Shown here piece by piece: positions 5,197 to 23,472 of a stretch of 64,000 nt of DNA. The notes beneath the pieces were generated by a model, which saw only the letters and a list, made by a program, of their open reading frames with translations, had not been told where the DNA came from and did no database searches. The DNA is taken from assembly GCA_965248355.1 (NCBI GenBank), contig OZ252098.1, positions 1,312,001-1,376,000 on the forward strand, in the 5' to 3' direction. The first letter of the stretch is position 1, and every line of letters begins with the position of its first letter. Source of the stretch: Candidatus Latescibacterota bacterium (GTDB lineage Bacteria; Latescibacterota; UBA2968; UBA8231). The position numbers and the translations under genes are program-made.

Positions 5197-6200
5197 ACCT
5201 CGACAAGGATTCCCTGGCGGGGTACCTGCAGCGGAAGAAGTTGATCGTCGAGGACGAGAGCGTCCTCGACGTGCGTCCGGTCGGGGACGGGCTCAAGAAC
5301 CGGGTATGGGTGGTGGTCACCTCCGAGCGGCGGCTGCTGGTCAAGCAAGCCCATTGGAGGGTGCAGATGAAGATGCGCTGGTGGACGGACCGCAGGCGGC
5401 TCTTCGCCGAGAAGCGCTGCATGGAGACACTGGCCAACATCCTGCCCCCCCACGTGATCCCCGAGCCCCTGCTGGAAGACCGCACGAACTTCGTTCTGGT
5501 CACCACGGCTCCGCCCCGCGATGCGGTGGTGTGGACCGAGGAGCTGGACCTGGGACGCATCGATCTGCAGGTCGCCTCCCAGGCCGGGAACCTGCTGGCC
5601 TCCGTGCACAGCCAGACGCGCGAAATGCCCGAGCTGAAAACGATGTTCGAGGAGACCAAAGCCTTCGAGCAGCTCCGCGTGGAGCCCCTCTACGAGTACG
5701 TGGCCGCCGCCTTCCCCGAGATCCGGAGCGCCGTCGAGTCGCAGGCCCGGGATCTGATGGAGACCCGGCTCTGCCTCGTCCTCGGGGATCTGCGGCCCTG
5801 CAACGTCCTCATCAACAAGGGCCAGCTCTATCTCGTCGACTTCGCCACCGCCCACTTCGGGCAGCCCTCCTTCGATCTGGCCTTCTATGCCGGCGACATG
5901 TGCCTGAAGGCGATGCTCAACCACCCGCAGAAGGCCGCCTACCTCGAGGCGATCAACGTGTTCTGGGGCGCCTACTTCAAAGCCGCCGAATACGAGGGGT
6001 CGGCGGAGGTCGGGAGATCGGCGGTCCGGCACTTCGGTTGCCTGCTGCTGGCCCAGGTCTGCGGCCGGCGGCCGGTCCATGAGGGCGACGAGGCCTTTCG
6101 AGACCTCGCCTTCCGCATCTCCCGGAACCTCCTGTCAACCGAGCAGGAAAAAACCGAGGACATCACCGAATCCATCAATCGAACGCTGATCGATGGATGA
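5193..6200 (+). CDS. APH/choline kinase-fold phosphotransferase, 5-methylthioribose kinase-like
   Basis: AGGAGG RBS and ATGA overlap with lipA. Motifs GDGLKNRVW, LVKQA, LGDLRPCNVL, VDFA and GQPSFDL. Confidence 0.7.
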   Translation: MNLDKDSLAGYLQRKKLIVEDESVLDVRPVGDGLKNRVWVVVTSERRLLVKQAHWRVQMKMRWWTDRRRLFAEKRCMETLANILPPHVIPEPLLEDRTNFVLVTTAPPRDAVVWTEELDLGRIDLQVASQAGNLLASVHSQTREMPELKTMFEETKAFEQLRVEPLYEYVAAAFPEIRSAVESQARDLMETRLCLVLGDLRPCNVLINKGQLYLVDFATAHFGQPSFDLAFYAGDMCLKAMLNHPQKAAYLEAINVFWGAYFKAAEYEGSAEVGRSAVRHFGCLLLAQVCGRRPVHEGDEAFRDLAFRISRNLLSTEQEKTEDITESINRTLIDG

Positions 6201-7738
6201 GGCACGCACCTGCCGCCATCCTGCTCGCCTTGTGGGGCTGCGCCCCCGGCCCCGCCCCCGAGCCCGGTGACCCCCGGTCCGGCGTGCCGGCGCCGGCGCG
6301 CGAGTTCCGCGCCGTATGGGTGGCCACCGTCGACAACATCGACTGGCCCTCCCGGCCAGGCCTGACCGCGGGGCGCCAACGGCTCGAGGCCCGAGCCATC
6401 CTGGACCGGAGCCGTCAGCTCGGGCTCAACGCCGTCATCCTCCAGGTCCGCCCTCACTGCGACGCCTTCTACGCGTCGTCCCTGGAGCCCTGGTCCTATT
6501 ACCTGAGCGGCCGCCAGGGAGAGCCGCCGAAACCCGCTTACGACCCCCTTGAATTCTGGGTGGAAGAGGCCCACGCCCGCGGACTCGAGCTGCACGCCTG
6601 GCTCAACCCCTACCGGGCCCAACACCCGAGGAACCTGGGGGGCCTCTCGCCGCAGTCCATCGCCAGCCGGCGGCCCGACCTCGTGCGCACCCTCGGCGAC
6701 AGCGGCTACCTGTGGCTCGATCCCGGCTCCGAGGAAGTGCGCGATTTCACCCTGTCCGTCTTTCTCGACGTGGCCCGGCGATACGACGTGGACGGCGTGC
6801 ACCTGGACGACTACTTCTACCCGTACCCCTCCTACAGCGACGGCGCCGATTTCCCGGACGAGCCCACGTGGCAGGCGTACCGGGAGGGAGGCGGCCGCCT
6901 CGAGCGGGAGGACTGGCGGCGGGAGAACGTCGACCGCTTCGTGGAGACCCTCCACGCCAGCCTGCGCAGCCTGTCGCGGCCGATCAAGCTCGGCATCAGC
7001 CCCTTCGGGATCTGGCGCCCGGGGCATCCGCCCTCGATCGACGCCGGGCTCGATCAGTACGGCAAGCTCTTCGCGGACCCCCGGCGCTGGCTGCACGAGG
7101 GCTGGCTCGACTACTGCGCCCCACAGCTCTACTGGCCCATCTCCAAGGTCTCCCAGAGCTTTCCGGTCCTGCTCGCCTGGTGGGCCCGCAACAACCCGCA
7201 CGGGCGCCACGTGTGGCCGGGCCTGTACACCTCCTCCGTGCGCTCACGCGGCTGGCCGGCGCGCGAGATCGTCGACCAGATCATGATCACCCGCGGCCTG
7301 CTGCAGCCGGTGCCCGGACACATCCACTTCAGCGCCCGGGCCGTTCTCGACTCCGCCCGCGTCGGGTCCGGCGGGGACCGGCTGACGGCGATCCTGGCCA
7401 AGGGTCCGTACCGGGGTCCGGCCCTGGCGCCGGCCACGCCCTGGCTGGACGACCTGCCTCCCGAGGGACCACGGGTGACGGCTCGCCTTCAGGACCGCGA
7501 TCTCCTGCTGGACTGGTCCCGGCCGGCCGGAGAACGGCCCTTCCTCTACGTGGTCTACACCAAGGGCCGCGACAGCGGATGGCGGCACACGATCGTGCCG
7601 GCCTCCCGGACGGAGCTGCGTCTGCCCCTCGGGGGGGCCGGGGGGAAGGGCGAGGTGGAGGCCGTGGCCGTCACCGCCGTGGACCGCATGGGCAACGAGA
7701 GCGATGTACGCGTGCACCCCCTCGAGAGTCTGCTCTGA
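6197..7738 (+). CDS. GHL10/YddW(DigH)-type glycoside hydrolase lipoprotein with C-terminal Fn3-like domain
   Basis: Lipobox LWGC, EFRAVWVATVDNIDWP, HAWLNPYRA, DGVHLDDYFYPY, PQLYW. Confidence 0.9.
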   Translation: MRHAPAAILLALWGCAPGPAPEPGDPRSGVPAPAREFRAVWVATVDNIDWPSRPGLTAGRQRLEARAILDRSRQLGLNAVILQVRPHCDAFYASSLEPWSYYLSGRQGEPPKPAYDPLEFWVEEAHARGLELHAWLNPYRAQHPRNLGGLSPQSIASRRPDLVRTLGDSGYLWLDPGSEEVRDFTLSVFLDVARRYDVDGVHLDDYFYPYPSYSDGADFPDEPTWQAYREGGGRLEREDWRRENVDRFVETLHASLRSLSRPIKLGISPFGIWRPGHPPSIDAGLDQYGKLFADPRRWLHEGWLDYCAPQLYWPISKVSQSFPVLLAWWARNNPHGRHVWPGLYTSSVRSRGWPAREIVDQIMITRGLLQPVPGHIHFSARAVLDSARVGSGGDRLTAILAKGPYRGPALAPATPWLDDLPPEGPRVTARLQDRDLLLDWSRPAGERPFLYVVYTKGRDSGWRHTIVPASRTELRLPLGGAGGKGEVEAVAVTAVDRMGNESDVRVHPLESLL

Positions 7739-7793: not shown

Positions 7794-8450
7794 ATGCCCG
7801 CCATCGCCGATATCGGAACTCGTGTGGAGCTGGTGCCCATGGACGGGCACTGTCACGACATCACCCTGGCCCTGTACCGCCAGCCCACCACGAGCGGCCC
7901 CGCCTTCCTGGTGCACACCTACAGCTCCCGCGGCGAGGCGGAGCGGCGCCTCGAGGATGTCCGTTCCCTCATGACGACCCTGGGCGACCTGCGGCCATCG
8001 GTGGAGGCGGCCGGCCTGCTGGCCTTTCCCTGCGGGGATGAGCACGGCCTGGCCGTCCGCCGCCTCTTCCTCGAGGCGTGCAAGATCGGCTCGCCCGACG
8101 ATGCGACCCCTCCTTCCCTGTCCACGGTGGACCGCAAGTCGGGCCTGACCATCGTCGCCGAGCCTCTGGGAGAGGGCCAGTACCGGGTGCGGGCGGTGGG
8201 AGAGGCCGACGAGGCCGAGCGCTCCCGCCGGGTCGGCGTGATCGTCAACGGCCTCCTGAAGCTGGGAGAGATGCGCCCCGTGGAAGGGGCCGGGAACTGC
8301 GTCGGCTTCGACTGCGGCCATCCCCACGACGAGCTCGTGGGTCTGCTCCTGGTGCGCGCGCCGAACGTGCGCGCCATCGTCCGCGAACAGCAAGCGCTGG
8401 CCGGCCGCGGTGTGCTGGCGGCGCCGAGCCAGCAGGGGAATCAGTCATGA
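7794..8450 (+). CDS. Conserved-looking hypothetical protein with two F-x-C-G-x-x-H repeats; first gene of the methyl-transfer operon
   Basis: Native GC3 codon bias, ATGA overlap with the next gene, internal repeat visible in the protein. Confidence 0.75.
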   Translation: MPAIADIGTRVELVPMDGHCHDITLALYRQPTTSGPAFLVHTYSSRGEAERRLEDVRSLMTTLGDLRPSVEAAGLLAFPCGDEHGLAVRRLFLEACKIGSPDDATPPSLSTVDRKSGLTIVAEPLGEGQYRVRAVGEADEAERSRRVGVIVNGLLKLGEMRPVEGAGNCVGFDCGHPHDELVGLLLVRAPNVRAIVREQQALAGRGVLAAPSQQGNQS

Positions 8451-9478
8451 CCACCTCCGCCATGAACGGCAGGCAACGGGTCCTCGCCGCCCTGCAGCGA
8501 CAGCCCGTGGACCGCACGCCGGTGTGCAATCCCACCTCGGTGGCGACGGTGGAGCTGATGGACCTGGTGGACGCGCCCTTCCCCGCCGCCAACCGCGAGC
8601 CCGAACTCATGGCCCGACTGGCGGCCACGGGCTACACCGAGCTCGGCTTCGACAGCATCATGCCCGTGTTCTCCATCATCCAGGAGTCCTCGGCCCTGGG
8701 CTGCAAGATCCAGTGGGAGCAGAAGGACAACTGGCCCACGGTGAAGATGCGGGAACCGATCTGGACCTCCGCCGACGACATCCGGATCCCTCCCGGCCTG
8801 CTCACGCACCCGGACACGAAGTGCGTCCTCGACGCCCTCACCCTGCTGCGCCGGGAGTACGGCGACGAGGCCGCCATCATCGGCAAGACCATGGGCCCCT
8901 GGTCTCTCGCCTACCACGGCCTCGGCGTCGAGCCCTTCCTGCTCATGTCCCTGGACGATCCGGACGAGACCAAGAGGATCCTCGACGTCCTGAAGGAGGT
9001 CACCGTCGACTTCGGCATCGCCCAGGTCGAGGCCGGCGCCGACGCCCTGACCCTGCCCGACCACGCCACCGGCGACCTCGTGAGCGGCTCGTACTACGAG
9101 CGCTACCTGCGGGATCTGCACATCGAGTTCGCCGAGCGCATCCCCTGCCCCATCATCCTGCACATCTGCGGCCGCACCGTGGACCGCATGGAGTTCATCG
9201 CCCAGACCGGGATGGCCGCCTTCCACTACGACTCGAAGAACAAGCCCCGGGAGTCGAGGGAGATCGTGGGCGAGCGCATCAGTCTCGTGGGCAACATCAA
9301 CAACCCCGAGACCCTCTTCGCCCGGCAGCCCGAAGACGTGGCCGCCGAGGTGGTGAGAAACCTGGAGGCCGGGGTGCAGCTCGTCGGCCCGGAGTGCGCC
9401 ATCCCCCTGCAGACCTCCATCGAGAACCTGCGCGCCATCCCCGAGGCCGTACGCAAGTGGCACCTGCAGGCGAACTGA
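8447..9478 (+). CDS. MtaA/CmuA-family methylcobamide methyltransferase (URO-D superfamily)
   Basis: RQRVLAALQRQPVDRTPV start, ESSALGC, GPWSLA, AQVEAGAD, and zinc motif ILHICG...GPECAIP (H-x-C...C). Confidence 0.88.
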   Translation: MTTSAMNGRQRVLAALQRQPVDRTPVCNPTSVATVELMDLVDAPFPAANREPELMARLAATGYTELGFDSIMPVFSIIQESSALGCKIQWEQKDNWPTVKMREPIWTSADDIRIPPGLLTHPDTKCVLDALTLLRREYGDEAAIIGKTMGPWSLAYHGLGVEPFLLMSLDDPDETKRILDVLKEVTVDFGIAQVEAGADALTLPDHATGDLVSGSYYERYLRDLHIEFAERIPCPIILHICGRTVDRMEFIAQTGMAAFHYDSKNKPRESREIVGERISLVGNINNPETLFARQPEDVAAEVVRNLEAGVQLVGPECAIPLQTSIENLRAIPEAVRKWHLQAN

Positions 9479-10228
9479 TTGCCCGGCCTGTCCGACATCC
9501 GCAACGAGTCCCTTCGCTTCGAGATCGAGGAGTACCTGGAGAAGCCGGAGGAGATCGCGCGCTTCGTGGAGGTCTTCTCCGCCGCCCGGCCGATCCACCA
9601 GGACATGGCGGCGGCCCTGATCGAGGGCGACCATCACACCGTCGACGCCCTGGCCGTCCAGGCCCTGGAGGAGGGCATCGAGGCGCTGGAGGTGATGGAC
9701 GACGGACTCATCTCGGGCATGGGGATCGTGGGCATCAAGTTCCGGGAGAACTTCATCTTCGTGCCCGAGGTCCTCGCCTGCGCCCGGGCCATGAAGGCGG
9801 GCATGGCCCACATCGAGCCGATCCTGTCGGCCTCGGGCGTCGAGAAGGCCGGCAAGGTGGTCATGGGGACGGTGAAGGGCGACCTCCACGACATCGGCAA
9901 GAACCTTTGCATCATGATGCTGAACGGCGCCGGCTTCGACGTCATCGATCTCGGCGTCGACACCTCGGAGGACGAGTTCATCGACGCCGTGGAAGAGTCG
10001 GGGGCCCGGCTGCTGGGGATGTCGGCGCTGCTGACGACGACCATGCCCAACATGGGCAAGACCATCGAGGCCTTCATCGACGCCGACCTGCGCGACGAGG
10101 TGCAGATCATGGTCGGCGGCGCCCCGGTGACCCAGGAGTTCGCCGAGGACATGGGCGCCGACGGCTACGGCAAGGACGCCCTGGCCTGCGTCGAACTCGC
10201 CAAACAACTGACGGGCAAACCCACCTGA
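9479..10228 (+). CDS. Cobalamin-binding corrinoid protein (B12-binding cap plus B12-binding domain)
   Basis: GMGIVGIKF...FVPEVL cap, GTVKGDLHDIGKNL (DxHxxG), SALLTTTM, VGGAPVT, GADGY. Confidence 0.95.
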   Translation: MPGLSDIRNESLRFEIEEYLEKPEEIARFVEVFSAARPIHQDMAAALIEGDHHTVDALAVQALEEGIEALEVMDDGLISGMGIVGIKFRENFIFVPEVLACARAMKAGMAHIEPILSASGVEKAGKVVMGTVKGDLHDIGKNLCIMMLNGAGFDVIDLGVDTSEDEFIDAVEESGARLLGMSALLTTTMPNMGKTIEAFIDADLRDEVQIMVGGAPVTQEFAEDMGADGYGKDALACVELAKQLTGKPT

Positions 10229-10572
10229 TGACCGGGATCCCGCCCGAAGAGGTGCAGAAGCGCTTCGACCGCCTCACCGAGATCTTCGGAGAGATCGTCA
10301 ACCACGCCGACGCCCAGTCCTCGTGGCGCTGCCCGTACCGCGACCGCCACGATCTGTGCACGGCCAAGTTCCACTGCAAGAACCAGACGGCCGCCCCCGC
10401 GGGGAAGAGCACCGCCGACGGCGACCTGTCCTGCTCCCACGACGGCAGCTTCGACTACCGCAGCGCCTGGGAGTCGGACCCGCGCACCGAGGAGCGCGCC
10501 CGCCGCCGCATCGAGACCATCCGCGAGCGCGCCGCCGAAGGCCGCCAGGGGCGCCGCGGCCCCGGGCGCTGA
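10228..10572 (+). CDS. Small Cys-rich hypothetical protein (C-x8-C-x5-C-x18-C)
   Basis: TGATG coupling to the corrinoid gene. 114 aa: MTGIPPEEVQKRFDRL...RCPYRDRHDLCTAKFHCKNQ...LSCSHDG. Strong GC3 bias. Confidence 0.75.
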   Translation: MTGIPPEEVQKRFDRLTEIFGEIVNHADAQSSWRCPYRDRHDLCTAKFHCKNQTAAPAGKSTADGDLSCSHDGSFDYRSAWESDPRTEERARRRIETIRERAAEGRQGRRGPGR

Positions 10573-10590
10573 CGGCCGGTCCCCCCGGCC

Positions 10591-12249
10591 ATGGCCGTCG
10601 TCCGCGCGCCCGGCCTCGAGCCGCAACGGCTGAAGCCGGGGCGCACCCTCTTCGACTACGCCGACGACCTGCGGCTGCAGGTCCCCACCTCCTGCCTGCG
10701 CAACGGCTATTGCCACGAGTGCGTGGTCGAGATCCACGCGGGCCTGGAGGCCCTGCGCCCGCGCTCGCCGGCGGAGCGGTTCCTGCGCGACCCGTACCGC
10801 CTGGCCTGCCAGGCCCTTGTCGTGGGCGACGTGGACGTGGATTTCGAGCCCCTCCGCCGTTCGCCGCAGATCCTGTCCGAGACCCGCCCCCGCCGCATCG
10901 AGCCGGACCCCGTGGTCCGGCGGCGCGGCGACGAGGTCCTGTACGGCTGCGAGCCCGTCGACCGCTACCGCGGGCACCTCTACGGGCTGGCCATCGATCT
11001 CGGAACGACGACGATCGCCATGGATCTCGTCGACCTGGAGACGGGAGACTCGGTCTGCGTCACCTCCTTCGAGAACCCCCAGCGCTTCGGCGGCTCCGAC
11101 GTGATGCACCGCATCACCTACGACGGCGGCCCCCACCACGGGGAGCTGCAGAAGGCGGTGACCACCGCCCTCAACCACCACATCGCCGACATGGTCCATC
11201 GCCTGGGCTTCGTCCGCCAGGAGATCTACGAGATCACCGTGGCCGGCAACCCGACCATGCGCGACCTGCTCTTCCGCCTGGACGTGCAGCCCATCGGCAC
11301 GCGCCCCTACAAGTCGATGGTGGAGCGCGCCTTCCTCGACGGCGAGCGGTCCACCACGGCCTGCGTGGAGAAGTCGCGGCGCCTGGGCATCCGCGCCAAC
11401 ATCCACACCCGCGTCTACGGCCTGCCCCTGATCGCCAGCCAGGTGGGCGCCGACACCGCCGCCGATCTGGTCGCCTGCGACCTGCTGAGCGCCGAGGGGG
11501 ACGAGGTGAGCCTGCTGGTCGACGTGGGCACCAACACCGAGGTCGTCATCGCGGGAAGAGGGCGGATGGTGGCCGCCTCCTCGCCGGCGGGACCGGCCTT
11601 CGAGGGCGGGCTCGTGAGCTGCGGCATGCCGGGCTACGAGGGCGCCATCGATTCGGTGCGCATCGACGACGAGGGGGCCTTCGTCTGCACCACCATCGGG
11701 GACGCCGAGCCCCTGGGCCTCTGCGGCTCGGGCCTGGTGGATCTGCTCGCCGAGCTGCGGCGCACCGGCCGCATGTCGGAGAAGGGCGTCCTCGGGGACG
11801 GCCGCCGGCGCAACCCGCGGCTGCCGGTGGCGCCGGAGCAGGGCATCACCTTCTCCGCCGAGGACGCCAGCCACCTGGCCCAGGCCAAGGCGGCCAACTA
11901 CTGCGGCCAGTATCTTCTGCTGCGCGAGTTCGGCATCGATCCCGCCGATATCTCCCGGCTGTACCTGGCCGGGGGCTTCGCCAACTACGTCGACGCGGCC
12001 AACGCCGTGGCCATCGGCTTCCTGGCGCCGGTGCCGGCGGAGCGCATCGTCAAGGTCGGCAACGCCGCCCTCCAGGGCGCCCGCGAGGTGCTCCTCAGCC
12101 GCGGCCGGCGCCGGCGGCTGGAGGCGGCCGTGGCCCGCATCGAGCACGTGGAGCTGGAGACGGTGCCCGAGTTCTTCGACGCCTTCGTCGACGGCTGCAT
12201 GTTCCGGCCCATGCCCTCCCGGGTCCTGAACCGACAGGATGCCCCTTGA
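10591..12249 (+). CDS. ASKHA-domain reductive activator of corrinoid proteins (RACo/RamA-like) with N-terminal [2Fe-2S] domain
   Basis: SCLRNGYCHEC...RLACQA ferredoxin motif, AIDLGTTT, VDVGTNTE, AGPAFEG, GLCGSG, LAGGF, GNAAL. Confidence 0.93.
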   Translation: MAVVRAPGLEPQRLKPGRTLFDYADDLRLQVPTSCLRNGYCHECVVEIHAGLEALRPRSPAERFLRDPYRLACQALVVGDVDVDFEPLRRSPQILSETRPRRIEPDPVVRRRGDEVLYGCEPVDRYRGHLYGLAIDLGTTTIAMDLVDLETGDSVCVTSFENPQRFGGSDVMHRITYDGGPHHGELQKAVTTALNHHIADMVHRLGFVRQEIYEITVAGNPTMRDLLFRLDVQPIGTRPYKSMVERAFLDGERSTTACVEKSRRLGIRANIHTRVYGLPLIASQVGADTAADLVACDLLSAEGDEVSLLVDVGTNTEVVIAGRGRMVAASSPAGPAFEGGLVSCGMPGYEGAIDSVRIDDEGAFVCTTIGDAEPLGLCGSGLVDLLAELRRTGRMSEKGVLGDGRRRNPRLPVAPEQGITFSAEDASHLAQAKAANYCGQYLLLREFGIDPADISRLYLAGGFANYVDAANAVAIGFLAPVPAERIVKVGNAALQGAREVLLSRGRRRRLEAAVARIEHVELETVPEFFDAFVDGCMFRPMPSRVLNRQDAP

Positions 12250-13268
12250 AGAGCTTTTCCGAACGACTGCAAGAGCCCCGGCCCGTCCTCTTCGACGGCG
12301 GCTTCGGCACGCAGCTCTTCGCCCGCGGCGTCGAGCTGCCCAACAGCGCCCTGGCCAACGCCCATCACGCCGACACCGTGGTCGACGTACATCGAGCCTA
12401 CATCGAGGCCGGCTCGGAGATGATCGAGACGAACACCTTCGTCGCCTCCGCCCTGCACCTGGAGATGGCCCAGGCCGGCGATCTCTCCGCCGGGGAGCTG
12501 GCCAGGCTCGCCGCCGGACACGCCCGGCGGGCCGTCGAGGAGAGCGGCCGGGAGGTGTTCGTGGCCGGTTCCCTCGGACCCTCTCCCGGGGCGATCGAGG
12601 CCGACGCCGGCGACACCGACTTCGGGATCGCCGACGACAAGGTCCGGGCCGCCCACCAGGAGGTGGCCGAGGGCCTGGCCGACGCCGGCGTCGACCTGCT
12701 CCTCGTGGAGACCATGTTCTCGGCCCGGGAAGCGGCCATCGCCGTCGACGTGGCCCGGGGGTTCGGACTGCCCGTCGCCCTCTGCCTGACCTACAAGTTC
12801 ACCCAGGACCGCAGGACGAAGCAGGTCATCTACCGCACCGACTGGGGCCACTCCCCCGCCGACGCCGTGGAGATCCTCGGCTCCGGGGAGCACTCCGGCG
12901 GCGACGACCTGCTGCCCTCCATCGACCTCCTCGGCCTCAACTGCGGCGCCGAGTCCGTCCGCGAGAAGCACTCCGGCATGGCCTACGCCATCGAGGGCAC
13001 GAGGCAGACCGCCGAGGCTCTCGCCGAGCGGGGCCTGACCGGCATCCGCCTGGCCGCCTTTCCGAACGCGGGCCTGCCGAAGATGGACCGGCAGACCCGG
13101 CTGACCTACTACCTGCAGGGACCGGAGGTGATGATCGCGAGCCTCGACGAGCTCCGGCGGGCGGGCGCCTGGCTCATCGGCGGCTGCTGCGGCACCACCC
13201 CCGACCACATCCGCGCCTTCCGGGAAGGCCTCGACGGCGGGGCCGGCCCGGGAGGGTCCGATGACTGA
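12246..13268 (+). CDS. Stand-alone homocysteine S-methyltransferase (MetH Hcy-binding domain)
   Basis: TTGA overlap with the RACo gene. LFDGGFGTQL, H..YIEAGS, ETNTF, GSLGP, ETM, GLNC, PNAG and GGCCGTTPDHI zinc ligands. Confidence 0.92.
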   Translation: MKSFSERLQEPRPVLFDGGFGTQLFARGVELPNSALANAHHADTVVDVHRAYIEAGSEMIETNTFVASALHLEMAQAGDLSAGELARLAAGHARRAVEESGREVFVAGSLGPSPGAIEADAGDTDFGIADDKVRAAHQEVAEGLADAGVDLLLVETMFSAREAAIAVDVARGFGLPVALCLTYKFTQDRRTKQVIYRTDWGHSPADAVEILGSGEHSGGDDLLPSIDLLGLNCGAESVREKHSGMAYAIEGTRQTAEALAERGLTGIRLAAFPNAGLPKMDRQTRLTYYLQGPEVMIASLDELRRAGAWLIGGCCGTTPDHIRAFREGLDGGAGPGGSDD

Positions 13269-13530
13269 GTACCAGATCCTCTACTGGCGGGACATCCCCG
13301 CCCAGGTCCGCGTCTTCACGAGTCGGCGCCCCCTCTCCCGGCCGCTGCCCGAGCGCTTCCAGCAGGCCATCGACCGCGCCGCCATGGCCGAGGGTCTGGC
13401 CGGCACCGACGACTACCTGGCCCAGTGGCGGTGGACGGAGAGGCGCAGCGGCGACGGGGAGCCCGAGGAGCTGCTCCATCGCCTGATCGAGGAACTGGCG
13501 GCCGCGTACGACGCCGCCAACCCGGCCTGA
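13261..13530 (+). CDS. 'Virulence_fact' (CvfC-like) domain small protein
   Basis: YWRDIPAQV...[14 protein letters not shown]...TDDYLAQWR signature. This family is commonly found beside split methionine-synthase genes. Confidence 0.8.
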
Positions 13531-13534
13531 AGCC

Positions 13535-15478
13535 GTGGCCACGACCTATCCCAAGACCTACGAGACGATCGTCGTCGGCGGCGGCCACGCCGGCACCGAG
13601 GCGGCCCTGGCGGCGGCCCGCATGGGCGCCGAGACCCTGCTGGTGACGATGAACCTCGACACCATCGGCCAGATGTCCTGCAACCCCGCCATCGGCGGCA
13701 TCGGCAAGGGCCACATGGTCAAGGAGATCGACGCCCTCGGCGGCCAGATGGGGATCAACACCGACCTGTCGGGCATCCAGTTCCGGCGCCTGAACACCCG
13801 CCGGGGCCCCGCGGTGCGCGCCACCCGGGCCCAGTGCGACAAGAAGGCCTATCAGCTCGAGTTGAAGTACGCCTGCGAAGGCCAGCCCCGCCTCGACGTG
13901 CGCCAGGGGACGATGGAGAGCCTGCTGGTGGAGGACGGCGCCGTGGGCGGCATCGGCGTCAAGGGCGGCATCGTCTACTCCGGACGCACCGTCATCCTGA
14001 CGACCGGCACCTTTCTGCGCGGCAAGATCCACGTGGGCGACTACCAGTACGCCGCGGGGCGCGCCGGGGAGAGCTCCGCCGACCGGGCCGCGGAGGGGCT
14101 CGCCCGGCTGGGGTTCCGTATCGGCCGCCTGAAGACGGGCACGCCGCCTCGCGTCAACGGCCGCACCATCGACTTCCCGGCCCTGGAGCCGCAGCCCGGG
14201 GACGAGCCGCCGCCCACCTTCTCCAGCCGCACCGAGGGCCCCGCCCTGCCCCAGGTCCCCTGCTGGATCACCTACACCCACGCCGGGACGCACCAACTGA
14301 TCCGGGACAACCTGCAGCGCTCCGCCATGTACTCGGGGCGCATCGAGGGGGTGGGACCTCGCTACTGCCCGTCCATCGAGGACAAGGTCGTGCGCTTCGC
14401 CGGCCGCGACCGCCACCAGATCTTCGTCGAGCCCGAGGGCCTGCGCACTCACGAGCACTACATCAACGGCCTCTCCATGAGCCTGCCCGAGGAGGTGCAG
14501 CTGCCCGTCCTGCGTTCCCTGCCCGGCCTGGAGCGGGCCGAGATGATGCGGCCCGCCTACGCCGTCGAGTACGACTACGCCGAGCCGACGCAGCTGCACC
14601 CCACCCTCGAGACCAAGCGCGTGGCGGGGCTGTTCTTCGCCGGCCAGATCAACGGCACCACCGGCTACGAGGAAGCCGGCGCCCAGGGGCTGATGGCCGG
14701 GATCAACGCCGTGCTGAAGGCCCGCGGCGAGGAGGCCTTCGTCCTCGACCGCTCCCAGGCCTATATCGGGGTGCTCATCGACGACCTGGTGACCAAGGGA
14801 ACGACCGAGCCCTACCGGATCTTCACCTCGCGGGCCGAGTTCCGGCTGCTGCTGCGCGAGGACAACGCCGACGAGCGGCTCATGGAACACGGGCGCCGCT
14901 TGGGCATCGTCGACGACGAAACCTGGCGGCGCTACGAGGGCAAGCGCGCCAGCATCACCGCCGAGATCGAGCGCCTGGAGTCGCAGCGCCTGCCCCTCGG
15001 GGAGGGCGTCGACGAGCTTCTTCGGGAGCGGGAGACGGCGCCGGTGCGCGAGCCTCCCCTGCTGCGGGACCTGCTCCGGCGGCCCCAGCTTCGCTATGCC
15101 GACATCGCCGCCCTGGCCCCTCCCGAGCGCCCGCTGACGCCGGAGGCGGGGGAGTGCGTGGAAGCGCACGTCAAGTACGCCGGGTACATCGACCGCCAGG
15201 CCGATGAGGTGGCGCGGCTGCGGCGCATGGAGTCCCTGCGGATCCCGGAGGACTTCGACTACGACGCGGAGGCGCGCCAGCTCTCCTCGGAGGCGCGCCA
15301 GAAGCTCGGCCGCGTGCGGCCCCGCTCCCTCGGGCAGGCGTCGCGCATCTCGGGCGTCTCCCCCGCCGACGTCTCGTCGCTGATGGTCCTCCTCAAGGCG
15401 CGGAGGCGGCCGCCGCCGGCTGCTCCCGCCCCTTCACCTTCCGCACCCGGGAGTCCCCGCTCAGCAGCCAGCGGCTGA
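13535..15478 (+). CDS. mnmG: tRNA uridine-5-carboxymethylaminomethyl(34) synthesis enzyme
   Basis: [49 protein letters not shown]. Confidence 0.98.
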
Positions 15479-19922: not shown

Positions 19923-20086
19923 GCGGGATCAGGCGCTCGCCGACCTGGCGGTACTCGGCGAACACCATGGGTTGGGACAGCTCCAGATCCCTCGTCGTAG
20001 TACTCCACGTCCACGGGCATCCAATCCTCGGTGCGCACGCGCACCACCACCTTGCCCCACACCACCGGCGCTTTCGGCTTCGGTCT
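19923..20086 (-). pseudogene. Internal fragment of a LolA-like outer-membrane lipoprotein-sorting protein
   Basis: PKPKAPVVWGKVVVRVRTEDWMPVDVEYYDE continues, after a frameshift, as LELSQPMVFAEYRQVGERLIP. No start of its own. Confidence 0.6.
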
Positions 20087-20588
20087 GAGCATGGGCCGCC
20101 CCTTCGACCCGTCCCACGCTTGCAGGCCGACGGAGATGGTCTCGGCATTGGAGGAATCGACGGAGACCGGGATGTCGGTCAGGCCCTGCACCGTCGCCAC
20201 GCGCCAGGTCATGGCCTCCTTCTGCTCTTCGAGCTTCAGCGAGATCTCATCGACCTTGAGATCGAGGGAATCGGCGCCCGCCTGTTCCTGCACGCTGAAC
20301 CATCCGTCTCAGGTAATGCATGCCCTCGGCCGGACTCTCGGTCGCCGCCCATCGCTGCCTGCACGGCGATCTTGACGTGCTTGACGCGTCCTTCCTCGAG
20401 TCCTGGGTGCCCTCCACCGCTTCCGGAATGACCAGGTGGCGCCGCTCGCCGTCGACCGAGCGGTAGCGCACCGCTTCCCGGCCGTCGCCGGTGGTCGTGA
20501 CGAGCTTGCCGCGGCGCATCACCACCCGCGTGGTGTGGATGTTCTCGCCGATGATGACGAAATCGAGATCGGGGTTGTGCAGCTTCAT
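20087..20588 (-). pseudogene. Frameshifted, 3'-truncated pterin-binding methyltetrahydrofolate:corrinoid methyltransferase (MeTr/AcsE/DHPS fold)
   Basis: Across three frames: IIGENIHTT...EEGRVKHVKIAV...EGMHYLRRMVQR...QEQAGADSLDLKVDE...IPVSVDSSN...GRPML. Three frameshifts, and it breaks off before the conserved NS motif. Confidence 0.8.
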
Positions 20589-20684
20589 GGCAGGTTGTTC
20601 GGTCGCTTGCGGCCGTGCCGCCCGCGCGCGGCACTCGACGGGCCGACCGGCCTATCGACATCCAAGGTGGCACAAAGAGAGAAT

Positions 20685-21437
20685 CTAAGCCGGCAGCCTT
20701 TGGCTCCAGGAGGTACCCGGGATCCCCTTGGCCCGGTCCGGATCCGTCCACCGAAGCAACACCGCTCCCCGGTAGGCCTCCGCCAGCAGGCGGTTGGGCG
20801 TCGCCTCTGCCGACGCCGAGGCCACGCCATACCCGCGCGCGTACGCCCGTACCCGAAATATCCGCTTGACCCCGTTGGGCAGGTCGGGCACCGTGTGCTC
20901 GGTCAGCTTGAACACCGTCTGATCCGTGAGACCCCCCAGGCCCGTCGGCTTCCACTCCCCAAAGTCCCCACCGGTCACCCGCTCCTGATACTGCCAGCCC
21001 CGGATGCCGGGATTCTTCGGGTCCGGGGAATCCCACCGCAACGTCACCTCGCCGTGACCCGCCGTCGCCGTCAGGCCCGCCGGCGCGTTCGGCGTGTCCC
21101 GGATCGTCACCGTCGACGTCGACGGGGCCCCGGACCGCACCCCCGCCGGCAACCGCCCGAAGCTCAACCCGATCGTCTCGTCCTCCACGTCGGCATCGCG
21201 CCTGGCCCAAATCTCGAACGAAGCCGAGGCACTGCCTCCGGTGAACACGAGCCCTCCCGACGGGCTGAGGTCGCGGACCCCGTAGTCCCGCTCTTCATCC
21301 GTGTCTTCCGCCGACAGAGCCGTCACCACCATCGGCACCTCCAACCGCTCGCTCGGCGCCGACGACAGGAAAGGGCTAGCAGACAACAGGATCGTCAGAA
21401 TCAGACCATACGCCCGCAGATCAGTCAAATCAGTCAT
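20685..21437 (-). CDS. Calx-beta-like plus fibronectin type III domain protein, probably a truncated remnant of a larger surface protein
   Basis: LVFTGGSASASFEI..DADVEDETIGLSFG..STVTIRD, then PNAPAGLTATAGHGEVTLRWD...FRVRAY. Ends partway into a second Fn3 repeat. Confidence 0.6.
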   Translation of the reverse strand: MTDLTDLRAYGLILTILLSASPFLSSAPSERLEVPMVVTALSAEDTDEERDYGVRDLSPSGGLVFTGGSASASFEIWARRDADVEDETIGLSFGRLPAGVRSGAPSTSTVTIRDTPNAPAGLTATAGHGEVTLRWDSPDPKNPGIRGWQYQERVTGGDFGEWKPTGLGGLTDQTVFKLTEHTVPDLPNGVKRIFRVRAYARGYGVASASAEATPNRLLAEAYRGAVLLRWTDPDRAKGIPGTSWSQRLPA

Positions 21438-22175
21438 TCAGTCATTGAAATTCTTCACCTCTCCCCATGGCAGCGATTGGATGGTGGTGAGAAAAACCTC
21501 CCAGGAGTGCCACTCGTCACTGGCGTCAGGTATGTAGTCACGATACGAGCCCTTCGACACCTGGACGGCCCAACCAAAGGTCCGTATGTCAGGCATGAGC
21601 CCATCTTGGGACAAGGCCGGGAAGCCGCCAAGGGCAGACCAGGGAATGGCTCCCTCCAGCCACTGGCCGGCAAGCGCGACCTCAAGCTCGGTGATGTCGG
21701 CACTTTCCGTCGGGGGGTTCCATCGGCCGCCGGTGTACCGCCGGTAGGTCTCGGTCGTCAGGCGCCCCCCCTGGCCGGTCACCGTGAACCGGTATTCCGG
21801 TCGGAACCCTTTCCAGGGGGCCGTCCGGTCGCCAGAGGTGGTGTCGGGGGACACGTCGAAGAACAGGTCCACCGTCGTGGGGTCCGAACCATGGAAGGGG
21901 GGGACGTAGAACCGGAAGATGAAGGCGAACAACTCGCGCCTGGGTATGTCGTGGGGGCCATACTCGCCCCAGCCGAAGCTGTATTGCATGATGTCCACCG
22001 TGCTGTTTGTGTCAGGGGTCACGTCACTGATATCGTCGAGGTAAAAGCTGGTCCCCCAATCCTGCCAATTCCCGTCGACGGTGAAGTTCAGGCGATCCTG
22101 CGCCGGGGCTACTTGGGCGCCAAGCCCCAAGGTCACGACGGCACTCAGCAAGGACAGCACGTTGCGCACTCGCAT
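21438..22175 (-). CDS. Secreted hypothetical protein with C-terminal 'SLPWGEVK' tail
   Basis: AAGGAG RBS, signal peptide (APA-QD), VDGNWQDW and LEGAIPWSALG motifs reminiscent of CBM9/DOMON sugar-binding folds. Confidence 0.75.
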   Translation of the reverse strand: MRVRNVLSLLSAVVTLGLGAQVAPAQDRLNFTVDGNWQDWGTSFYLDDISDVTPDTNSTVDIMQYSFGWGEYGPHDIPRRELFAFIFRFYVPPFHGSDPTTVDLFFDVSPDTTSGDRTAPWKGFRPEYRFTVTGQGGRLTTETYRRYTGGRWNPPTESADITELEVALAGQWLEGAIPWSALGGFPALSQDGLMPDIRTFGWAVQVSKGSYRDYIPDASDEWHSWEVFLTTIQSLPWGEVKNFND

Positions 22176-22425
22176 GGCGAAGTCTCCTTGTCCTGTGGTA
22201 GTGTCGGGTTGGAGCTGGGAATTCTGCCCTCGACCAAACGGGAGCCCGCCCGGGCACGTTGGCGTCCGGGCGGCGGAGCACCGAGATCCGGGCCGGCATC
22301 CGGGCGAGCGTTCGATTGGACCGCAAGTGTGCATCGAGGCCCTCCCCAAGCCAACGGAGTCCCGATCCAGTGCACGGCTCCGTCGGTCCCAGAGCAGTCT
22401 CGGTGAGGACCGCCGCTTGGCGGCC

Positions 22426-23472
22426 TCACCCAACCCGGTAGCGCTCCACCACGTCCAGATCCAGCCTCACCCCGAGGCCCGGCCCCTCCGGCACGGTGAA
22501 GTGGCCCTCCGTCAACTCCAGGCTGCCGCCGAGGACGTCCGCCTCGCGCACGAAGGGCAGCTCGTCGCATGGCAGGGTGGCCTTGGGGATCGTCGCCTGC
22601 ACGTGCACGGAGTAGGCGGCCAGCACGCCGAGGCAGACGCCGCCCATCTGCACCCACACCGGGACGTTTCCGGCGGCGGCCACGGCGGCGGCGGCCCTCA
22701 CCTCCCGGGCCCGGCCGCCGAGGGTCAGGTAGTCGACGCACTCGGCCTTCAGGGCCGCGAGCACGTCGGCGCCGCGGCAGGGGCGGCGGCCCTGGGGCAC
22801 GCCGATGTGCATGGCCACGGGGATGTGGGTCTTCTCCCGCAGCAGGCGCCAGGAATCGAGGTTCTCCTTGGGGATGGGATCCTCGAAGTTGGCCACCGTG
22901 CCGAAGGGCTCCAGCTCGGCGGCGAGTCGGGCCGCGGTGTGCACGTGGCCGAAGCTGGTGTTGGGATCGACGCCGACGGTGTACTCGGGTCCCGCCGCCG
23001 CCTTCATGAGGCGCACGGTCTCGACGATGTTGTGGGTGCGGGCCTTGAGCTTGTGGTTGGTGAAGCCGAGGCGGCGGCCGGCCTCGGCCTCGGCGGCGGT
23101 ATCGGCGGCCGGCATGGCCGAGGACCAGTACGAGACGGGCACCCGCTCCCGCACCCGGGGGCCGAAGAACCGCCACACGGGCCATCCGAGGGCCTGGCCC
23201 TGGAGATCGAGGAAGGCGCACTCGAAGAGGTCCTCCTGGGCGAAGGGGTCCACGGCGAGGGGATCCTGCCCCACACAGGCGGCGGCCTGCGCCTCCAAGC
23301 GGGCTCGGCCCTCCTCGGACAGGGTGTAGACCGCCGACTCGCCGATGCCCTCCAGCCCCTCGTCGGTGCGCACCCGACAGAGGGTGATGTCGTAGATCCT
23401 CGGGTTCAGCCTGGCGATCGCCGCGATGGGCGGGATCTCCACGTGGTACAGGTCGACGCCGGTCACTCTCAT
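22426..23472 (-). CDS. Mandelate racemase / muconate lactonizing enzyme family (enolase superfamily)
   Basis: TDEGLEGIGES, DLQGQALGWPV, HKLK, VDPN, FEDP, PEGPGLGV. Confidence 0.88.
   Translation of the reverse strand: MRVTGVDLYHVEIPPIAAIARLNPRIYDITLCRVRTDEGLEGIGESAVYTLSEEGRARLEAQAAACVGQDPLAVDPFAQEDLFECAFLDLQGQALGWPVWRFFGPRVRERVPVSYWSSAMPAADTAAEAEAGRRLGFTNHKLKARTHNIVETVRLMKAAAGPEYTVGVDPNTSFGHVHTAARLAAELEPFGTVANFEDPIPKENLDSWRLLREKTHIPVAMHIGVPQGRRPCRGADVLAALKAECVDYLTLGGRAREVRAAAAVAAAGNVPVWVQMGGVCLGVLAAYSVHVQATIPKATLPCDELPFVREADVLGGSLELTEGHFTVPEGPGLGVRLDLDVVERYRVG

Follow-up and report, generated by a model that had tools for sequence, protein, structure and literature searches.

A seven-gene corrinoid methyl-transfer cluster of a Latescibacterota bacterium joins a MtaA/CmuA-family enzyme and its predicted partner protein to a homocysteine methyltransferase: a candidate route from methylated sulfur or selenium compounds to methionine

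Most of what is known of corrinoid-dependent three-component methyltransferases comes from methanogens and acetogens, and the only cases in aerobes of which we know are the use of chloromethane and, since 2025, of glycine betaine. Here we analyse a cluster of seven genes (g1 to g7) at positions 7794–13530 of a 64 000-nucleotide stretch of DNA from Candidatus Latescibacterota bacterium (GCA_965248355.1, contig OZ252098.1, positions 1 312 001–1 376 000; the whole stretch is called the window). The cluster encodes a MtaA/CmuA-family enzyme, a corrinoid protein, a putative reductive activase and a stand-alone homocysteine (Hcy) methyltransferase, and we propose, with a probability of about one half, that it would carry methyl groups from a methylated sulfur or selenium compound through g1·g2 and the corrinoid protein to Hcy. 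An earlier note, made from the sequence of this DNA alone, had suggested that a small methylated compound charges the corrinoid for methionine synthesis; the absence of a pterin donor from clusters in which Hcy methyltransferase is the only exit (the Hcy-only form) speaks for that idea, whereas the folate link of related clusters and a complete MetH in the host qualify it.

The coenzyme M (CoM) methyltransferases of methanogens (MtaA, MtbA, MtsA; PDB 4ay7) share with g2 the fold, the subfamily TIGR01463/NF004889 and the His-x-Cys...Cys site, and in both the corrinoid protein is a separate one, accompanied by a RamA/RACo activase. The chloromethane CmuA/CmuB system and the O-demethylases of acetogens, compared by description only, also combine a URO-D-type substrate enzyme, a corrinoid carrier, a pterin-dependent enzyme forming methyl-tetrahydrofolate (methyl-THF) and a RACo-type activase; we know of no Hcy exit in either. 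According to the accessible part of Kountz and Balskus (PMC10418091), type 1 mlp clusters contain a SCMT-like Mlp, a corrinoid protein and an activase of the bacterial Ram/RACE type, often without a H4folate methylase, are defined by Mlp2 plus Mlp3 (two or three Mlps), were reported from obligate anaerobes only (73% Firmicutes) and were proposed to serve methyl-sulfur/methyl-selenide metabolism, selenium utilisation genes being enriched in their hosts. The cluster studied here resembles them in its His-Cys-Cys site, its corrinoid protein with Ram/RACE activase and its lack of a H4folate methylase; by gene content (Mlp sequences being outside the comparison) it differs in having one URO-D-family gene rather than Mlp2 plus Mlp3, in the addition of g1, a 4-Cys activase domain, Hcy/pterin exits and g7, and in hosts that can respire aerobically. 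Roseobacters, as far as the accessible parts of Price (2018; PMC5764234) and Mausz (2025; PMC12478193) describe their split MetH and MtgBCD–MtgE, have a stand-alone Hcy module, a corrinoid protein, a RamA-like activase and a pterin methyltransferase adjoining a second MetF (as do relatives of the present cluster), and the corrinoid protein also serves a further donor methyltransferase. Their donor enzyme is a MttB-family glycine betaine methyltransferase, whereas here it would be a MtaA-like enzyme with g1; DUF1638 is replaced here by PF13769; and the split enzyme is the sole methionine synthase there, whereas a full MetH coexists here.

The seven co-oriented open reading frames (ORFs) on the + strand follow one another closely. 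An ATGA overlap joins g1 and g2 (8447–8450), g2 abuts g3 (9478/9479; g3 starts with TTG), g3 and g4 share base 10228 within a TGATG, an 18-bp gap separates g4 from g5 (10573–10590), g5 and g6 meet in a TTGA (12246–12249; g6 also starts with TTG) and g6 overlaps g7 by 8 bases (13261–13268). Re-read from the sequence, all junctions were as the earlier note had described them, and the gene order and domains given there agree with our profile scores.

On sequence grounds, g2 (8447..9478, +) is a MtaA/CmuA-family corrinoid methyltransferase of the URO-D fold, distinct from HemE and not orthologous to the MtaA or MtbA of methanogens. Its match to PF01208 (URO-D) scored 216.9 bits, and it exceeded the cut-offs of TIGR01463 (MtaA/CmuA; 250.1 vs 235.4) and NF004889 (259.7 vs 244), but fell below those of the MtaA equivalog NF040654 (234.3 vs 400) and the MtbA equivalog NF041608 (189.5 vs 600), which sets it apart from the methanogen enzymes. 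HemE is ruled out (TIGR01464, 68.8 vs a cut-off of 302.95), upholding the initial assignment as MtaA/CmuA; of only two PF01208 matches in the whole genome, the other, at C1:1728343 (C1 being the genome's single contig), is truly HemE-like (332.8 bits). Aligned with Methanosarcina MtaA (PDB 4ay7) over 326 residues (182 bits), g2 places its LHICG and PECA motifs opposite the zinc motifs of that enzyme, and H239, C241 and C317 are the ligands predicted from the alignment (His-x-Cys...Cys). To gather relatives, one genome per prokaryote species was scanned with g2, yielding 173 confirmed relatives, the best 80 of which, chosen by likeness to g2, were kept as loci and their contents counted by tblastn; several are cut by contig ends, and because of absences in loci from metagenome-assembled genomes (MAGs) the counts are lower bounds. 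The HxC motif is conserved in 79 of the 80 homologues and ECA in all 80.

With g2 as query, the full library yielded 2536 relatives (E ≤ 0.001); the three closest full-length representatives showed 52, 49 and 47% identity. Of 89 representatives labelled with NCBIfam, four pass the MtaA model, one passes MtbA and nine are corrinoid-domain fusions. In a quick tree (IQ-TREE, LG+G4, SH-aLRT support only; 94 rows after removal of 7 partial ones, with a HemE outgroup on a very long branch and without named CmuA, MtsA, MtpA, Mlp or O-demethylase sequences), all 11 rows of the g2 family fall into a single clade (support 100), separate from the MtaA- and MtbA-passing rows, on a long stem (0.41) with short internal branches that do not follow phylum. 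This clade is nested within a 36-row clade (support 99) of unnamed relatives; ten of these, from Bacillota/Limnochordia MAGs and metagenomes, are called ‘MtaA/CmuA family methyltransferase’ or bear automatic CoM-methyltransferase labels. The profile and tree check suggested for g2 thus separates it from HemE, MtaA and MtbA, with MtsA and CmuA outside the comparison; in an attempt to obtain CmuA, tblastn of g2 against plasmids reached at most 28% identity, and no CmuA stood among the 25 listed of 33 matching records. Two longer relatives, P0042 (686 amino acids) and P0031 (595 amino acids), were noted as instances of fusion of g2 relatives to AroB 3-dehydroquinate synthase (339 bits) and a MtgC-type corrinoid domain.

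Since the zinc site of g2 is His-Cys-Cys, the methyl group most probably comes from sulfur or selenium, following the rule for S/Se methyltransferases of this superfamily set out in the accessible part of PMC10418091; candidates would be a methyl thioether or thiol (dimethyl sulfide (DMS), methanethiol, methylthiopropionate) or methylselenol/dimethylselenide. A system of the same architecture and direction could draw instead on a methyl halide, as CmuA does, or on an O-methyl compound, as do O-demethylases. That g2 passes the MtaA/CmuA model fits such a donor, as does the lack of a transporter in the conserved cluster, which would suit a membrane-permeant volatile, and RraA/LigK-like, HpcH-aldolase and second URO-D genes occur near the cluster in L042, L044 and L065. 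We nevertheless judge it quite improbable: aromatic-pathway neighbours turned up in only three of the 20 loci examined, CmuA carries its corrinoid domain as a fusion whereas g2 and g3 are separate proteins, and O-demethylases replace the Cys ligands (PMC10418091, accessible part) that g2 and nearly all of its homologues keep.

The most constant companion of g2 is g1 (7794..8450, +; 218 amino acids), which adjoins it in 77/80 loci, a further difference from the methanogen systems. No match to g1 was obtained in Pfam or NCBIfam profile searches. Its AlphaFold2 model (predicted local distance difference test, pLDDT, 92.8) is a tandem duplicate of a β-β-β-α-β-α module, for which Foldseek returned nothing from the PDB at E ≤ 0.001 and the ESM Atlas no usable match; a VIA wide search gave at best Z 7.4, to a urea amidolyase domain, with HIT proteins at Z 4–5, a range that the tool deems common. 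Of the three CGxxH motifs described as repeats in the earlier note, two are conserved (C80/H84 and C174/H178, retained in at least 90% of 64 sequences, and jointly lost in L032 and L038), while that at C20 is not. A model of the g1·g2 complex scored 0.90, compared with 0.13 for the best of three controls; 116 of 157 solved complexes attained this mark, as did 2 of 215 mismatched pairs, although these counts hold only roughly here, custom alignments having been used. Runs agree in at least 61% of contacts, the partner pLDDT is at least 87, and the interface contains H206, C241 and C317 of g2 together with the conserved g1 tail (residues 203–212). From the model, g1 is predicted to be a partner subunit that binds g2 with its tail at the zinc site. 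A protein considered as a g1–g2 fusion (P0063) was rejected; its likeness is confined to the first half of g1 and the beginning of g2, with an unmatched stretch between, so it is probably a frameshifted gene call.

The carrier of the system would be g3 (9479..10228, +), which has the B12-binding_2 cap (PF02607, 73.5 bits) and the Rossmann B12-binding domain (PF02310, 96.1 bits) of corrinoid proteins, with DLHDIG as its DxHxxG motif. In NCBIfam it comes closest to a MtgC-type model (202.4 bits; cut-off 370), falling short of this cut-off and of those for MtbC and MtaC; homologues 67–85% identical occur in 59/80 loci. Downstream lies g4 (10228..10572, +), a protein of 114 amino acids with four Cys that exceeded no family cut-off in Pfam or NCBIfam. 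The two genes g4 and g5 form one continuous ORF in 28 of 54 loci and are separate in 26, which makes g4 the split-off N-terminal domain of this type of activase. The product of g5 (10591..12249, +) has the 2Fe-2S, middle and ASKHA ATPase domains of RACo/RamA proteins (Fer2, 27.6; Raco_middle, 132; RACo_C_ter, 220.1 bits), scores below the AcsV (280.9 vs 800) and RamA (120.4 vs 500) models and is the only RACo_C_ter match in the genome. Judging by these domains, we propose that g4 and g5 together constitute an ATP-driven activase reducing Co(II) to Co(I).

The stand-alone Hcy S-methyltransferase domain protein g6 (12246..13268, +) scored 180 bits against PF02574 (S-methyl_trans; cut-off 22) and retains the Cys motifs NCG ... 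GGCCG. Among solved relatives it is nearest to the Hcy domains of MetH (85.9 bits), before HMT (62.1) and BHMT (51.4), and homologues of at least 50% identity occur in 14/80 loci. We propose that g6 may methylate Hcy from methyl-corrinoid rather than from S-methylmethionine, S-adenosylmethionine (SAM) or betaine. Three further S-methyl_trans paralogues, 26–28% identical to g6, are encoded at C1:835660-834710, C1:59098-58202 and C1:1467948-1469801, the last being followed by a MTHFR-like stretch as in bifunctional YitJ-type enzymes. The final gene, g7 (13261..13530, +), encodes a PF13769 (‘Virulence_fact’) protein (81.3 bits) and is found in 18/80 loci, seven of which place it after a pterin methyltransferase and have no Hcy methyltransferase in the vicinity. 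Fusions among 11 longer relatives link PF13769 to DUF1638 (PF07796; three), Pterin_bind (PF00809; one) or Fer2 (PF00111; one), and in the accessible part of PMC5764234 DUF1638 is cofit with the RamA-like activase of split MetH. We accordingly put forward g7 as a putative accessory of the corrinoid/pterin part. Foldseek found nothing in the PDB for its fold, and a kinship with g1 was rejected (hhalign of the profiles, E 0.71) despite a similar strand–helix order. For the three accessory proteins for which the earlier note saw no known role, the possibilities can be narrowed: g4 can now be read as the activase N-terminus, g7 has its DUF1638/Pterin_bind fusions and g1 is a predicted g2 binder.

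Clusters of this kind are widespread. Homologues of g2 69–84% identical were found in MAGs labelled Latescibacterota, Poribacteria, Gemmatimonadota, Acidobacteriota, Actinomycetes, Verrucomicrobiota, Planctomycetota, Spirochaetia and Alphaproteobacteria, and the labels of MAGs with such homologues cover at least nine phyla besides that of the host, many of the MAGs being marine or sponge-associated; within the host phylum 125 of 168 species genomes contain g1. Beside g1 and g3, the core comprises g4 (58/80 loci) and g5 (53/80), and all five core genes occur together in 53/80; the cluster is conserved. Poribacteria-labelled loci hold g1–g2 only, with g3–g4–g5 grouped elsewhere in five of five such genomes tested. 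What follows the core varies: a PF00809 pterin-binding methyltransferase is present in 31/80 loci (85.3 bits; best NCBIfam match, methyl-THF:corrinoid/Fe-S protein methyltransferase, 205.9 vs 259), a MTHFR fused to a DUF5981 C-terminal domain (at least 60% identity) in 15/80, a Hcy methyltransferase in 19/80 (14 at 50% identity or more and five at 33–37%, four of the latter placed between g2 and g3 in loci labelled Planctomycetota and Verrucomicrobiota, the fifth after g5) and both exits in 5/80. A divergent GntR/FCD regulator (at least 40% identity) accompanies 23/80 loci, no match to it being obtained by tblastn in the host genome at E ≤ 1e-4. The pan-cluster can be written GntR < g1 g2 g3 g4 g5 [MTHFR] [pterin methyltransferase] [Hcy methyltransferase] [g7]; 11 loci contain g1 to g7 complete, the pterin enzyme being an addition in four of them. 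By this comparison of gene content the window holds a reduced form of a cluster spread over many phyla. The possibility raised earlier that homologous clusters always work with an intact pterin subunit is borne out in part only, and the counts of the pterin enzyme, MTHFR and Hcy methyltransferase together mark the system as a whole as folate-linked, Hcy being one of two exits. A search of the open literature returned only related systems and no account of the g1–g2–g3–g4–g5 cluster; as far as this search reached (subscription journals and supplements being outside its scope), the cluster has not been described in print.

These elements could be joined as follows. The g1·g2 complex would demethylate a methyl-X compound with Co(I)-g3, giving X-H and CH3-Co(III)-g3, with g3 as cobalamin carrier; g6 would pass the methyl group from CH3-Co(III)-g3 to Hcy, forming methionine; g4 and g5 would bring Co(II) back to Co(I) at the expense of ATP; and g7 would assist the corrinoid/pterin part. 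In relatives, the same core would feed a pterin-binding methyltransferase and MTHFR, i.e. the folate pool, and in this respect the acceptor modules (Hcy or THF methyltransferases) differ from the CoM-linked ones of methanogens. In the present genome the folate exit would have decayed, leaving Hcy as the only acceptor encoded. A constant core combined with exchangeable second methyltransferases agrees with a role of g2 as the fixed enzyme on the substrate side. As this genome and all five other Hcy-only genomes examined lack a stand-alone pterin methyltransferase (in those five the only matches, 30–32% identical, lie within ORFs of 1221–1250 amino acids that are taken to be MetH), entry of the donor via g2 is the simplest way for the corrinoid to be charged. 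A second donor enzyme sharing the corrinoid protein of a split methionine synthase has a precedent in MtgBCD/MtgE of Ruegeria (PMC12478193, accessible part). The data themselves show family membership and gene content, the conservation of the cluster, the domain fusions and the missing pterin partner; we infer which way the methyl groups flow, that g1 and g2 form a complex, and what class of substrate is used.

The flow could also be reversed, with g1·g2 on the acceptor side methylating a thiol, sulfide or selenide for detoxification or methylthio/methylseleno biosynthesis. The methyl group would then stem from methyl-THF via the pterin methyltransferase in relatives, and in the window from methionine via g6 running backwards, or else the system would be crippled here. 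The nearest characterised enzymes by homology, MtaA and MtbA, do methylate a thiol from methyl-corrinoid, and the methyl-THF:corrinoid-type methyltransferase and MTHFR of many loci resemble a biosynthetic metF–metH pair. Against this, the Hcy-only form is conserved and, by its substitution pattern, apparently under purifying selection with no donor module, we know of no precedent for methionine as a methyl donor to Co(I), and GntR/FCD regulators, present in more than a quarter of the loci, are more usual for catabolic operons. We consider reversed flow unlikely.

The host genome, a single 5.5 Mb contig (95.7% complete), bears on the acceptor side. A remnant of the operon-type pterin-binding methyl-THF:corrinoid methyltransferase lies on the − strand at 20084–20588, 6.5 kb from the cluster; it is a frameshifted pseudogene covering residues 1–168 of about 348, with residues 1–108 and 101–168 in two frames (tblastn identities of 44% and 65% with the L010 protein), and residues 169–348 had no tblastn match anywhere in the genome. 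Beside it stand two − strand ORFs (20685–21437 and 21438–22433) outside known families, and G+C, about 70% throughout the window, drops to 0.659 within 20000–22433, a segment that may be an insertion that broke the pterin methyltransferase gene. Other Pterin_bind matches in the genome are confined to DHPS (281.8 vs 162.6) and a complete MetH, a 1263-codon open frame including the reactivation domain. The statement that the operon has no pterin-binding module and no SAM-reactivation domain is thus true of the seven genes, but a remnant exists in the window and a MetH in the genome. Three Meth_synt_2 (MetE C-terminal-like) matches of 75–87 bits at C1:4794481, C1:3620988 and C1:1296343 (open frames of 372, 720 and 356 amino acids) are possible ‘core’ methionine synthases and, if so, could also draw on a methyl-corrinoid protein; the four families of folate-independent ‘core’ methionine synthases are a different protein family (PMC7857596, accessible part). 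The genome search recommended for MeTr, metH and metE thus returned the first as a pseudogene only, the second complete and the third as these partial likenesses.

A rival view takes the cluster for a split methionine synthase of the usual kind with additional parts. Its ancestor would have held MTHFR, pterin methyltransferase, corrinoid protein, Hcy methyltransferase and RACo, the set in the window, having lost the pterin subunit, would be a redundant leftover, and g1·g2 would be auxiliary, for example in corrinoid priming or repair. Five loci (L010, L028, L029, L030 and L073) do carry every MetH-type module in one cluster, the pseudogene lies in the window, the full MetH renders the cluster dispensable, and Phaeobacter is an established case of split MetH combined with a RamA-like activase (PMC5764234, accessible part). 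Of the separate Hcy, B12 and pterin proteins of a split MetH, however, the pterin module is represented here by the truncated, frameshifted remnant alone. Of the activase and its partner the former is present (RACo_C_ter); DUF1638, to which PF13769 is fused in other organisms, had no match in the genome. The invariant pair across loci is g1–g2 rather than the MetH modules, and all five Poribacteria genomes tested keep g1–g2 along with g3–g4–g5. All seven genes are intact, with ratios of non-synonymous to synonymous substitution (dN/dS) of 0.09–0.39 against L003/L007 (NG86; dS 0.74–1.53, near saturation), which points to purifying selection on each of them. Contigs (97–99% alike) from two metatranscriptome libraries of one study together cover the cluster from g1 through g7 and cross the junctions g1/g2, g2/g3, g3/g4, g5/g6 and g6/g7; being contigs only, they are no proof of transcription, and patchy cover of g5/g6 in some runs is uninformative. 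On this evidence we think a redundant split MetH very doubtful.

Hints to the substrate from elsewhere in the genome concern selenium. A selD gene at C1:4976879-4977802 (354 bits) contains one in-frame TGA, as do most selD genes of the host phylum, implying use of selenocysteine. Among the 168 genomes of that phylum, 122 have both g1 and selD, three g1 only, nine selD only and 34 neither; the two genes have near-identical distributions by family, and five genomes of three genera within an otherwise positive family are without both. As the genomes are related, this co-distribution is not a statistical test. In other phyla, 30 of 40 g2-bearing genomes have selD and 10 have none, three of the latter (L044, L053 and L058) being chromosome records and thus counter-examples to a selenium link; two of 14 control genomes have selD, and the accessible part of PMC10418091 gives selenocysteine machinery for 21.5% of bacteria. 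Selenium use therefore appears to be enriched among hosts but not required. On the sulfur side, the accessible part of a 2026 review of dimethylsulfoniopropionate (DMSP) and DMS (PMC13360808) contains nothing on corrinoid demethylation.

Several observations weigh against methyl-S/Se-driven methylation of Hcy. The near-equilibrium of MtsA-type thioether-to-thiol exchange means that the direction cannot be read from the genes. The g1·g2 complex is a model and not a measurement, and CmuA, MtsA, MtpA and the O-demethylases have no place in the g2 tree. The complete MetH means that the cluster is not the only methionine route of the host, which can do without it for this purpose. Among loci with all five core genes, 12 of 53 have neither exit, no exit methyltransferase being found within 8 kb. 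The wider neighbours in the 20 loci examined are heterogeneous, with no shared transporter or substrate-specific clue. Finally, the genome (at its 95.7% completeness) lacks SBP56 methanethiol oxidase and a CDO_I-type thiol dioxygenase, which gives no support to a DMS or methylmercaptopropionate (MMPA) route, yet is not evidence against it.

The co-oriented run extends beyond the seven genes, with a GHL10 glycosidase-like gene (6197–7738, +) ending 56 bp before g1 and mnmG (13535–15478, +) starting 4 bp past g7, so that the transcription unit may exceed them; in a close strain, one RNA-library contig reaches from within the GHL10 gene into g2. The interval between lipA and the cluster holds, at 5238–6200 (+), a gene for an APH-family kinase (60.9 bits) with a weak N-terminal likeness to S-methyl-5-thioribose kinase (TIGR01767, 38.6 bits vs a cut-off of 275) and a possible tie to methylthio metabolism; this kinase (protein cluster 17) is also upstream of the cluster in eight related loci. 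Around the 20 related loci, 105 flanking ORFs had nothing in common beyond one-carbon/folate genes. Extra genes adjoin the cluster at L042:12905-15723 (−) and L065:13141-16096; some such loci have a second URO-D-family gene with a HpcH aldolase, and others a second corrinoid protein with IclR, SDR and RraA-like genes.

Capable of respiring oxygen by its heme-copper oxidase (505 bits), the host belongs to a setting in which the enzymes described here would be unusual: a type thought typical of methanogenesis, with a new partner protein and interchangeable folate and homocysteine exits, which would add a third aerobic case of corrinoid three-component methyl transfer. The general proposition, that these clusters encode a corrinoid demethylase made of a MtaA-like zinc enzyme and an obligate g1 that strips methyl chalcogenides and delivers the methyl group to THF or Hcy, is a tentative one, and we hold it to be somewhat doubtful. 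To our knowledge, cobalamin-dependent aerobic demethylation of DMS or methylthiopropionate was reported decades ago without genes, and if the substrate is a methyl sulfide the cluster would supply them; if it is a methyl selenide, it would provide genes for bacterial use of methylated selenium. If true, the proposition would mean folate-independent, methyl-chalcogenide-driven methionine synthesis, including in bacteria able to respire O2, and, with dimethylselenide or methylselenol as substrate, selenium scavenging.

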